Positions 15,001 to 19,166 of a DNA stretch of 19,166 bases are shown here, piece after piece. The DNA is from a virus (taxonomy: Duplodnaviria > Heunggongvirae > Uroviricota > Caudoviricetes). Numbering within the stretch: position 1 is the first letter of the stretch; every line of letters begins with the position of its first letter. The position numbers were made by a program. The stretch lies in IMG/VR virus record IMGVR_UViG_2526164631_000041; one strand, given 5' to 3'.

Positions 15001-18000
15001 TACCGGCTTTCTGTCCGTCCCAGACCACCAGTTTCCCGGTGGCTTCATCCAGCATCAGGGGCGTCAGTGCCGGTGTTGCCGAGGAAATCCCGCTGCTGCC
15101 TGTGGCGGTATGAGCCGGATCATTACCGGCAAAAATACGTACTTCCGCACGCTGTTCAGTGATGGTTTTCGTTACCATATTGTAAAAACCTCCTGTTGAT
15201 GATCAGCACTGACTTCATGGCATGGCCATGAGCATTTTCACGTCCGCATCACCGTCTGCTGACGTCTGTGGCACGCCACCCTGTACCGCTGCCGGTGAAT
15301 GGTTCGCCATGATGCGTTCAAACAGGGCGGTTGTGGATGCAGAGACCGGTTCTGCCTTACCTGATCTCGCAGCCAGCACAGCCCGGGCGCTCTCCACAGT
15401 CATTCCCGGGCAGGCAGCCAGCTGTTCAGCCTGCGCCTCAGCCCCTTTTGCCTCATCCAGTGCCATGATCTGATCACGGAGTGAGGGTCCGGCATCCGCC
15501 TGCGGTGAAGCAGCCAGGATCGGGCGGGCTTTTTCCACCGTCATCTCCGGCATCGCCGCCAGCGTTGCCGCCAGTTGTTCACGACCGTTCGCTTCTTCAC
15601 ACGCCATAATGCGATCGGCTTCACTCTGCGTGGATGCCACCGGCTGCTGCGGTGCCGCCGCGGCCAGAATCGCCCGGGCCTGTGCAACGCTCATGCCCTG
15701 TTGTCCTGCCAGCATCGTGGCAAGCTGTTCACGTCCTTTCGCTTCCTGGCATGTCAGGATCCCCATCACTCGCTGGTTCTCCTGCGCGGCGGCTTCCGTT
15801 GCAGTTAATTGCGGCATAGTGCCTCCTCTGACATTACTGTTCAGCGCCGTGGCCATCACACTGATGGCATCCGACGCATTGACTAATTCATCCGCCAGCC
15901 CGGCCTCAATGCCGGACTGACCTTCAAAAACGGCGGCCTCTGTTCCCGTGACAGCATCAACAGACAGACCGGTATACATCGCCACTTTTTCAGCAAACAT
16001 CCGGCGCGCCGCATCAATGCGCTGTTGCATGTCCTGGCGAACCTCTGCCGGCAACGCTTCAAACTGATTGCCATCCACCTTGTGCGCCCCTGAGTAAATC
16101 AGCGTGATATCAACACCGGCCTGCGCCAGATGACCGGCATAGCTGACATGGCTCATCATCACGCCAATGGAGCCGATACGGGATGTCTGGGTAACCAGCC
16201 GTCGGGAGCAGGCCGACGCCAGCAGCATGGCTGCAGAGCAGGCCGTGTCATTGCACAGTGCCCAGACCGGCTTCTGCTGACGGAGGCGGTAAATCATGTC
16301 AGCGCAGTCAAACGCGCCGGCGGCCTGCCCGCCCGGACTGTCAATGTCCAGCAGTACGCCCCGCACCTGGCTATCCGCCATTGCCTGCTGAAGACAGGCG
16401 ACAATGCCGTCATAGCCAGTCATTCCGGAAAATGGCCGCATCCCCCCCAGCCGGTGCACCAGCGTGCCGGTCACCGGCAGTACCGCAATACCGTTCACCA
16501 CCCGGTAAACACGGGCCGGTCGTTTACCTCCGGCCATGTACTCGTCCGTTTCAGCCAGCATTCCGGGAGCATCAAGCTGTACCTGCTGTTGTGGTACCGA
16601 AAGACTTGCTGCCCCCATCTCGCGCCCGAGCGCGCAAAAGAAAACCCGCGCATAGGCGGGCTCCAGAAGCAGCGGTTCATTGAATGCTGCGGCAATAATG
16701 TGTGAAAGATTACGTCTCACGTGGTGTTGTCTCCTCTTCCGGCCTGCGACTCTCCGCTATCTGCTGCTGATACGCCTGCGCTATCCACACCGGACGTGAG
16801 AGTCCGGCTTTTTGTCGCTCTGCAGATTCCCTGACCTGCTGGCGGAAAATGTCCTGATAATCCTCGCCCATCAGCGCCAGCTCTTTCTCATACGTGCTCA
16901 GTCCGGCCTCAATGCGCATCACTGATTCCTGGAACCTCCTTGAGCCCGTCAATGGCCATTCTTCCGGCTCCAATCCACTCAGCCCGTGACCAGGCTGATC
17001 GCGCCTAGATAAAAATCAAAACGTGCCCGTGGCGGACGAATAATCCCCCGAAGAAGTGCCTCTTCCAGCCAGCAGGAAAACATCTGCGTGGCCAGCCGGG
17101 ACGCAATAAATTTTCGTCGTCCCATAAAATAGCGCCATGACTCATTGGCGGATGCGCGGGCACTTGAATAACTGACCTTCGAGTAATCACGGGACAACTG
17201 TTCGTAGGAAACGCCAAGACCGGCGGCGATATACCGCAGCAGCGCCTGTTCAAGCGCCGAAAATCCATTGTCTGAATCCTGCGCGGTCTGAAGTTTCAGA
17301 TCATCACCGGGGAAAAGTGCGGAATTTTGACACCACCCAGCGTCACGCTATTCGTGTCATACCAGGTGGAGAACTTATCCAGAATATTAATAAGCGGATT
17401 ATCCTTCTGCCCCTGCGGCGCACCGGCGATATATTCTAAAGGCCTTTTTCGGTATCAAGGTCACTTTCATCGTCGCTGCATACATCGCCTTCACTATGGC
17501 CGACTGAAGCTGTGTTGCCTGCAGGGAATCGAGCATCTTCAGCCGTTCCATTTACGCTGTAAAACTGATTGGCCCCACGGGTCTGCCCGTCCTCCACCGG
17601 CTCGAAAATATGCAGCATGGCCGGACGCCCGGTGGGAAGTTCACGCGGGATCCGTTCCCATCGTCCACTCCCGGAGAACGGAAAATCATCCTCACAGATA
17701 TGGTACGCAACGGCACGACCATATCGATCGACCTCCACACCGGCCCGCAGAAAACGGTTCCCCATACCGTGTCCTGGCGTGTCCACCCGTTTCGGACTCA
17801 CGGCTTTAAAACGCGTACGAAACAGTTGCGTGCTCTCCGTATCCCAGACCGGCTGCACAAAGATTTCGCCGTTAAACGCATGAACGCCCACACCTTCACG
17901 AATAAATTCCGTAAACGTGCGTTTCTCTTCCACGTCGATCTCGCCAGACATCCCTTCGGCGTATTCCGACCAGGCCGCCTCCACCTCATCGACAAAACTT

Positions 18001-19166
18001 TTTGCCGCAGTCTCCCGCATCCCCAGCCAGCGCCAGTTCGGACGGTAGCTGATCAGAAACATATGCCCGACAATATGATCCTTATGCAGGGCCACCGCAT
18101 TGGCCGCTATCCCGTTATTGCGCACCAGATCATCTGCCCGGGCATTCCCCAGACGCAACGCAGGCAGCAGGGCTGCATCGGCACTCTGCGCCGGTGGCAA
18201 CCACTCCGCCATTTGCCCGCCAAATCCTGCGCCGCCCCCGTTGTAGCTGAGACTCTCACGAAGCGGAACGCCGTTCACATCAATCAGGACAGGCGTTCGT
18301 TTCATAACCTCACTCCCAGCGGACGACGGCGACGTCGGGTTGTCCCCAGTACCGACTCCGCATCATTGATCGCCCGGTTAAGCTCATCCAGAGAAGCCGC
18401 CGTATATTCAATTCTGCGACCATCTTTCTGGACAGACACCACCCGTTTACCGGTTAATAAATCAAGGCGCGCCTGACGCAGCGCCTGCAGTTCAGCGACT
18501 GTAACCATTCACTCCTCCGGACAGCTTCGCTGCCAGTTCTTTCAGGGTTGGCCGGGTCGTCTCTTCTTCCCGGGATTTTGCCAGTACAGCCAGATCAAGC
18601 TGCCAGCGTTGCACGGACACACGTAATGCCGCGTAGGCATACACCAGGCAGTCCAGCGCTTCGTTACGCCGCTTTTTGTTATCCCACAGCAGACGCATCT
18701 TTCCTTTTTCCCACTTCTCCACAAGCTCTTCCGCGACCAGTTGCTGCGCCTCTGTCCGCGAAAAAATCTCCGGATCATCAGGAAAACGGATGGCATACGA
18801 CGTGGCTTCATCCGCAGGAGTGGGATCGGCTTTCATACGGGCATAGAGAATTTCTTTTGCGGTGTCCGTCCCCACTTCACACAGATACACGCCCCGCTGA
18901 TTGCGGGTTTTCGGCATGGTGATCACCGGCTTGCCATAGACAGATGCGCCTTTTACCGGCAGCACCCGGAAAACACCGTGTTTTTTTGACCTCTGATAGA
19001 CAATTTCGCCATCGATCCCCCCGGTGTCCCAGCAGACACGGGAAATGGTCATTTCGGTTCCGTCTGCATGGCGGTATTTTTTGTTGATCGCCACATCCAC
19101 ACGTAACAGCGTCTCTTCCTCATCGGGACGCCCCATAATGATGATTTTTATCCAACCAGAAAGGCT

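Follow-up and report, generated by a model that had tools for sequence, protein, structure and literature searches.

The portal gene near the end of the window (the 19,166-nt stretch of prophage DNA analysed here, taken at its full length) is interrupted by seven single-base indels, and with a probability of roughly 0.9 these are a local sequence-quality artefact in a 2012 draft genome and not an inactivation of the gene. We favour this reading because the finished genome of what appears to be the same strain, as well as every other relative examined, carries the gene intact.

The portal gene and its indels

The gene was located by its ORF fragments, by Pfam and PDB matches and by alignment to homologues:

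16710-18305, minus strand: lambda-family portal gene (gpB / phage 21 gene 4 type)

As deposited it comprises 1596 nt, and base-level alignment to the intact homologue showed seven 1-bp indels that disrupt its reading frame. Five of these are extra bases and two are missing bases, all lying between 16932 and 17553 (a span of 622 bp):

17551-17553, minus strand: indel 1, A inserted (coding strand AA to AAA), giving a +1 frame shift
17469/17470, minus strand: indel 2, T missing (TT to T), frame restored for 21 nt
17445-17449, minus strand: indel 3, extra A (A4 to A5), seen in the alignment
17437, minus strand: indel 4, A inserted between TTT and G outside any homopolymer, makes the TAG stop of the 289-aa ORF
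17317/17318, minus strand: indel 5, C missing (CC to C), seen in the alignment
17007, minus strand: indel 6, T inserted between C and A outside any homopolymer, makes a TAG
16931/16932, minus strand: indel 7, extra C (C to CC), returns the frame to that of the start codon at a cumulative +3

The largest ORFs left in the deposited region are of 289 aa (17436-18305), 72 aa (16979-17197) and 87 aa (16710-16973); the nominal frame contains 8 internal stops, and there is no single ORF of about 530 codons. A preliminary description of the window had proposed that the portal frame is fragmented and can be read only by changing frames, with start and stop frames in agreement; our ORF pieces bear this out, and the peptide segments quoted there are present. 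Its count of about six indels rises to seven by base-level alignment, the insertions at 17449 and 17437 having been merged into one site. Most of its indel sites stand, the missing C having been placed about 10 nt off (17306-17311 instead of 17317/17318). The correct length and net change of zero that it reported hold modulo 3 only, the actual net change being +3 nt (1596 versus 1593 nt).

With the seven positions repaired the gene has 1593 nt and encodes 530 aa. The repaired protein matches PF05136 (Phage_portal_2) with an E value of 3.5e-100 and a score of 336 bits (cut-off 32.9), the match running from position 2 to position 354 of the 354-position profile; the deposited 289-aa fragment scores 183.9 bits against the same profile. 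Residues 5-523 match the solved lambda portal (PDB 8k38, 'Portal protein B') with an E value of 8.1e-215. The neighbours of the gene are a W-like head-tail joining gene and a C/Nu3 protease-scaffold gene, with the terminase upstream, in the window as well as in strain 12A and phage 21. The profile match, the homology to a solved structure and the position within the head module together identify the product as a lambda-family portal (PF05136 / gpB).

The finished genome and other relatives carry an intact gene

The window corresponds to the terminal 19 kb of contig AIHA01000023.1 from the 2012 draft of E. coli DEC12A (GCA_000250215.2), AIHA being part of the DECA draft collection. The end of the window is the end of the contig and the indel cluster lies 1.6-2.2 kb from it. 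Over its entire 19,166 nt the window matches, at 99.8%, the finished chromosome of E. coli O111:H2 strain 12A (NZ_CP077479). The prophage in that chromosome is colinear with the window, with the same IS679 insertion and the same nle remnants, and a 1593-nt intact portal gene of 530 codons is annotated there, at 2,157,335-2,158,927. The window gene is 99.3% identical to this intact copy at the nucleotide level and the two proteins, after repair, differ by one residue. On the flanks, genes E-U (2.7 kb) and T-I (5.3 kb) show 100% identity to 12A.

Strain 12A appears to be the same strain as DEC12A from its name, its O111 serogroup and the allele pattern described below (395/395 sites). The O111 serogroup supports the match (PMC8924650), and our literature search on CP077479 found no paper documenting the provenance of strain 12A.

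None of the seven indels is present in 5,426 complete E. coli genomes, of which 2,037 have the gene with a best identity of 99.4%. Indel-specific 17-mers were found in 0 of 104 related IMG/VR loci, and that of indel 1 occurs in neither 12A copy as well. A 28-mer spanning the insertions at 17449 and 17437, the only pair searched in metagenomes, gave 0 viral contigs and 0 metagenome contigs (JGI); as a control for the power of this search, a 30-mer taken from an indel-free part of the window's portal gene retrieved 104 viral contigs. Among 153 billion gene positions, the truncated 289-aa protein (EHX31584.1 of E. coli DEC12A) is recorded in exact form on one contig only, AIHA01000023.1. A single uninterrupted portal ORF is found in strain 12A and in 66 of the 69 full-length IMG/VR relatives. 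In other draft-derived copies of the gene 1-4 indels of a similar kind occur at unrelated sites, in several cases on a short contig or at the end of one. A pseudogene would show lesions that are reproducible in the strain or common to its relatives, and the genomes, IMG/VR loci and metagenomes searched gave 0 such cases.

The preliminary description had left two readings side by side, a local sequence-quality problem and a real inactivation, and had pointed to related genomes as the place to look for one uninterrupted ORF. Such an ORF is there, 530 codons long in the finished 12A genome and in all other relatives examined. The sequence-quality reading is therefore supported and real inactivation is not, since the relatives are intact without any of the indels.

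These comparisons also bear on two biological explanations. The first is programmed recoding, in which the portal would be made through multiple ribosomal frameshifts. The start and end frames do agree and each shift is soon compensated, but all relatives are unshifted at the seven positions and have one continuous ORF, conserved slippery sites are not found, and two of the insertions make in-frame TAG stops. The module's one real programmed shift, G/GT at GGGAAAG, is conserved and quite different in look. We know of no precedent for seven bidirectional shifts without conserved slippery sites and give recoding a negligible probability.

The second is gradual decay of a cryptic prophage gene, the indels having gathered one by one over evolutionary time. 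Pathogenic E. coli commonly have frameshifted genes in their defective lambdoid prophages, and the annotation of this same element gives nleH and nleB2 as pseudogenes. Gradual decay should however spread differences over the whole element, whereas the flanking genes do not differ from 12A at all over about 8 kb. The clustering is also far beyond chance under uniform placement, with 7 of 10 indel events in 3.2% of the window (binomial P ~4e-9; the contig-end lesion was counted here as one event and later resolved into two, which leaves the conclusion unchanged). Finally no relative has even one of the seven indels, so that intermediate stages are missing. Gradual decay is thus very improbable, and both it and programmed frameshifting were rejected on the absence of conservation and the identical flanks.

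Unusual substitutions at three sites, 17335, 17138 and 16815, accompany the portal cluster. The T at 17335 is found in 7 IMG/VR relatives. Those at 17138 and 16815, together with one at 18757, are unique to the window among the sequences compared, which included two of the four 12A portal copies.

Consensus quality along the contig

The neighbouring head and tail genes were described as intact in the earlier account, and from C/Nu3 through I this is so, with 0 gaps and 0 internal stops. Over the whole window it fails, as four further 1-bp indels are present: the terminase end has two, and the IS66-family tnpA and the nleC remnant have one each. They are listed here with the largest patch of alleles from a second prophage:

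19137-19166, minus strand: extreme end of the draft contig, in the terminase large-subunit fragment, two +1 homopolymer insertions
3375, unstranded: T missing (TTT to TT) versus strain 12A, in the IS66-family tnpA of IS679
1322, unstranded: C missing (CCCC to CCC) versus strain 12A, in the nleC remnant
11201-11915, minus strand: tail genes V and G, largest patch with the alleles of the second paralogous 12A prophage

Alignment of the first 60 nt resolved the contig-end insertions as a T at 19154/19155 and an A in the run 19145-19149, both within the last 25 nt. All four of these indels are homopolymer length changes, as are five of the seven in the portal gene (9/11 in total). The other two portal indels are not homopolymer changes, an observation that counts against an artefact.

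The 12A chromosome has 4 matches to the portal query. At the 395 sites that separate two 12A prophages the window always has one of the two 12A alleles, switching between them in 17 runs, and this alternation between paralogous prophages is a sign of a collapsed-repeat or mixed-copy consensus. Inside the indel cluster 24 of 24 copy-distinguishing sites follow the colinear prophage, so mixing of the two paralogues alone does not explain the indels. An origin of the indels by mixing with the second 12A prophage was rejected on these sites and on the finding that both 12A copies are without indels.

The portal lesions are confined to one assembly, have a single-base and homopolymer-biased signature and lie at a repeat and contig-end site with other consensus trouble, which is what errors of a draft look like. 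The portal gene is very probably intact in the organism, an ordinary gene of the lambda/phage-21 type, and the indels are very probably consensus errors in a low-quality stretch. This stretch belongs to a lambdoid head-gene module of which the genome has four copies; the assembler very probably failed to separate them cleanly, and the contig breaks in the terminase gene. The cause may have been thin or poor read support, probably from pyrosequencing reads assembled through the repeat. The 2012 E. coli drafts of the same institute were made with 454 Titanium and Celera (PMC3491183), which for DEC12A is circumstantial.

Alternatively the indels could be real in the DEC12A culture sequenced in 2012, where a localized burst of frameshifts, for instance in one error-prone repair tract, would have struck the gene, 12A then being another stock or a sister isolate. 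The restriction of the cluster to a single 622-bp tract is in accordance with such a burst, as are the single prophage copy followed at all 24 informative sites and the three unusual substitutions alongside. The state of the element would also permit it. In both assemblies the prophage is already defective, because J, lom and most tail-fibre genes are absent and IS679 lies in their place; selection would thus not prevent a real decay of the portal, and the preliminary framing of an inactivated essential gene becomes moot. Against a burst stands the intact portal of finished 12A in a colinear and otherwise near-identical prophage, as well as the occurrence of the truncated product on one contig only. 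The contig moreover shows independent signs of a poor consensus, namely the contig-end indels, the paralogue mosaic and the homopolymer indels in the IS and nleC. Seven indels are accompanied by only about three substitutions and by flanks that are 100% identical over several kb, a combination that to our knowledge resembles no documented natural decay pattern. We therefore hold a real burst to be unlikely.

A single "mutation shower", in which error-prone synthesis over one tract of ~0.6-0.75 kb would have introduced the seven frameshifts and some substitutions into this cryptic prophage gene while the later-finished 12A stock escaped, is in our estimate decidedly unlikely. If true, it would show clustered frameshift mutagenesis as it occurs naturally in a wild isolate of E. 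coli.

Implications and comparison with known systems

The biological weight of the portal gene itself is small, as its product is a standard portal of the lambda type and the prophage is defective already. If the indels are draft errors, as we favour, the deposited 289-aa "portal protein" (EHX31584.1) and the small spurious ORFs next to it would be products of assembly error, and counts of pseudogenes or of "defective prophage" calls based on drafts of this kind would come out too high. Where multi-copy lambdoid head modules lie near the contig ends of early drafts, gene decay should not be inferred without read support.

The lesions resemble the errors of early next-generation drafts of the pyrosequencing type, which are likewise single-base and homopolymer-biased, occur at contig ends and in collapsed repeats and are confined to one assembly. 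Compared with the other draft copies of the portal gene examined, that of the window is more severely affected, with 7 indels in 622 bp against a maximum of 4 per gene. Genuine frameshifted pseudogenes are known from the defective lambdoid prophages of EHEC and EPEC, and the host element of the window is similarly defective, with nle remnants and an IS. Genuine lesions recur in independent assemblies of a strain or lineage, whereas those of the window are not reproduced in independent sequences.

The closest comparison is with the portal genes of the lambdoid phages themselves. Phage 21 is 96.4% identical at the DNA level across a 1,801-nt query (window 16600-18400) containing the gene, and the repaired portal of the window, of 530 aa, matches PF05136, the family of lambda gpB and the phage 21 gene 4 product, from end to end. 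It differs from these portals in that its frame, as deposited, is interrupted seven times, a difference that we attribute to the assembly and not to the organism.

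The portal gene and its indels

An ORF scan of the window recovers a lambda-family portal gene with a broken frame at 16710-18305 on the minus strand. The preliminary description could read this gene only by changing frames, and the peptide pieces that it listed are indeed present in the sequence. The scan divides the gene into three larger fragments, accompanied by other small ORFs.

Portal ORF fragments
17436-18305, minus strand, 289 aa
16979-17197, minus strand, 72 aa
16710-16973, minus strand, 87 aa

Indels were called by base-by-base alignment of the portal region with the portal CDS of the finished E. 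coli O111:H2 strain 12A, its nearest homologue with an intact frame. The two differ by seven single-base indels, spanning 622 bp, and four substitutions.

Single-base indels in the portal gene (minus strand; bases as on the coding strand)
17551-17553, +A, in an A-run
17469/17470, -T, TT to T
17445-17449, +A, A4 to A5
17437, +A, outside a homopolymer, creates TAG
17317/17318, -C, CC to C
17007, +T, outside a homopolymer, creates TAG
16931/16932, +C, C to CC

The clustering of 1-bp indels described earlier therefore stands, but their number was put at about six since the insertions at 17449 and 17437 had been merged into one site, and the deleted C had been placed about 10 nt from its true position. 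A net change of zero holds modulo 3 but not in length, as the gene is 3 nt longer in the window (1596 nt) than in 12A (1593 nt). Seven of the ten indel events in the 19,166-nt window fall inside the 622-bp span (binomial P ~4e-9; the lesion at the contig end, later resolved into two, was scored as one), and the cluster is a real property of this sequence record. Repair of the seven indels in silico yields a 530-aa portal that differs from that of 12A by one residue, E497Q. The repaired protein gives an end-to-end match to Pfam PF05136 (E 3.5e-100) and a match to 8k38, a solved structure of the lambda portal (E 8e-215). Substitutions at 17138 (synonymous), 16815 (with 16814 the source of E497Q) and 18757 are seen in the window only: neither of the two examined 12A prophage copies has them, nor does any of 104 related IMG/VR loci. 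They may represent additional errors or derive from the two other 12A paralogues beyond the examined pair.

Uniqueness of the indels

Nucleotide comparison with relatives, proposed earlier as a check, finds each of the seven indels in the window only. Across 2,037 E. coli genomes with the gene, identity to the window portal peaks at 99.4%, the value expected with all seven indels absent. A window-specific 17-mer for each site was found in 0 of the 104 IMG/VR loci and in neither 12A copy, and a 28-mer across the 17449 and 17437 insertions had no match in the viral or metagenome collection. An indel-free 30-mer from the same gene matches 104 viral contigs, and thus the scan had power. Programmed recoding of the portal, for which conservation is wholly lacking and which would have to accommodate new in-frame stops, has a negligible probability.

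The portal ORF is intact in 66 of 69 full-length relatives and is annotated as an intact 1593-nt CDS in 12A (WP_000831765.1), in agreement with the sequence-quality problem that had been offered as one of two readings. The disrupted, draft-derived relatives, three full-length copies and two others (IMG/VR loci L007, L026, L060, L084 and L094), carry 1-4 single-base indels each, mostly in homopolymer length and at positions unrelated to those of the window, and several lie on short contigs or at contig ends. Their lesions resemble the draft errors proposed for the window, which points to a repeated difficulty in assembling this multi-copy gene. Gradual pseudogene decay is very improbable, as it would have to leave flanks that are 100% identical and no intermediate among relatives.

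Source contig and finished genome

The exact 289-aa truncated product occurs in one contig only among indexed public assemblies, AIHA01000023.1 (76,483 bp; GCA_000250215.2), as EHX31584.1, 'phage portal protein, lambda family [Escherichia coli DEC12A]'. Neither of the two ORF fragments downstream of it had a match in any collection searched. AIHA00000000 is one of the draft genomes of diarrheagenic E. coli (DECA) that were announced in 2012 (PMC3558956), and DEC12A, a strain of serogroup O111, comes from the MSU DEC collection (PMC8924650). Drafts from the same institute and year used 454 Titanium paired-end reads and Celera assembly (PMC3491183), a circumstantial pointer to the DEC12A platform. 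The high-coordinate end of the window is the end of the contig, which breaks off inside the terminase large-subunit gene.

The chromosome of strain 12A (NZ_CP077479), which appears to be the same strain as DEC12A, matches the whole window end to end at 99.8% (19,166 vs 19,163 nt). Its annotated late region runs terminase, W, portal, C/Nu3, D, E, FI, FII, Z, U, V, G, T, H, M, L, K, I. In the window C/Nu3 through I have zero gaps and zero internal stops, and E-U and T-I are 100% identical to 12A. The earlier statement that the neighbouring head and tail genes are intact holds for C/Nu3 through I; the terminase end, IS679 and the nleC remnant carry 1-bp indels.

Single-base indels outside the portal gene
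19137-19166, terminase end, two +1 homopolymer insertions in the last 25 nt of the contig by alignment (T at 19154/19155; A in the run 19145-19149)
3375, homopolymer deletion, TTT to TT vs 12A, near the 3' end of the IS66-family tnpA of IS679, last codons altered
1322, homopolymer deletion, CCCC to CCC vs 12A, nleC remnant

IS679 (IS66 family: tnpA, tnpB, transposase; ~2740-5476) is a multi-copy element that directly follows tail assembly gene I in place of J, lom and most tail-fibre genes. The prophage is therefore defective in both draft and finished genome, independently of the portal. Beyond IS679 lie nleB2, nleC and nleH effector remnants, in the 12A annotation and in the window. On the minus strand a GGGAAAG heptamer (10845-10851) precedes the stop codon of the G-like tail chaperone gene (11258-10827) by ~20 nt, and a T-like ORF follows downstream (10800-10387). 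This is the classical layout of the lambda G/GT pair with its programmed -1 frameshift.

Probable mixed consensus of paralogous prophages

The portal query matches four places in strain 12A. Outside the portal cluster the window differs from the colinear 12A prophage (2.16 Mb) by 26 substitutions, all 26 matching a second 12A prophage at 1.92 Mb. The two copies are distinguished by 395 sites across 19131-11201, and at 395/395 the window matches one copy or the other, with no third state, and forms 17 alternating runs over its last 8 kb. This pattern ties the draft to the 12A genome and indicates that the assembler mixed reads of paralogous prophages in the final 8 kb of the contig. The alternation is probably a collapsed-repeat consensus and not real gene conversion. 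Searched against 5,426 complete E. coli genomes, the largest patch (11201-11915, in genes V and G) yields nothing above 98.3%, as expected of an artificial chimera. Inside the portal cluster the window agrees with the colinear prophage at each of the 24 sites that tell the copies apart, so that mixing of the two known copies is not itself the cause of the indels.

Interpretation

We conclude, with a probability of about 0.9, that the portal cluster is a local failure of consensus quality. A stretch of ~0.6-0.75 kb, 1.6-2.2 kb from a repeat-induced contig break, would have had too few or too poor reads and would have kept a raw-read-like indel rate of ~1%, mostly at homopolymers. The contig of origin, the private indels, the intact 12A gene, the mosaic consensus and the error signature are observed, while low depth or quality over the stretch and a pyrosequencing origin of the errors are inferred. 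The fit is imperfect in that 2 of the seven indels lie outside homopolymers, mixing of the two known copies does not account for the cluster, and the substitutions at 17138, 16815 and 18757 have no counterpart in either examined copy. Had the stock used for the 2012 sequencing undergone a genuine local burst of mutation, an already defective prophage would have exerted no selection against it. Such a burst is nevertheless improbable, for it needs a finished 12A genome from a different stock, frameshifts at a density without precedent and with hardly any substitutions, and coincidence with a contig region showing independent consensus trouble.

Read as a consensus failure, the cluster is best not counted as a real feature, and EHX31584.1 is an artefact, as are the small ORFs next to it in the draft annotation. 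The cluster matters solely as a caution on such annotation. The window gene fits squarely within the lambda gpB portal family, and its one departure, the interrupted ORF, is confined to this record.
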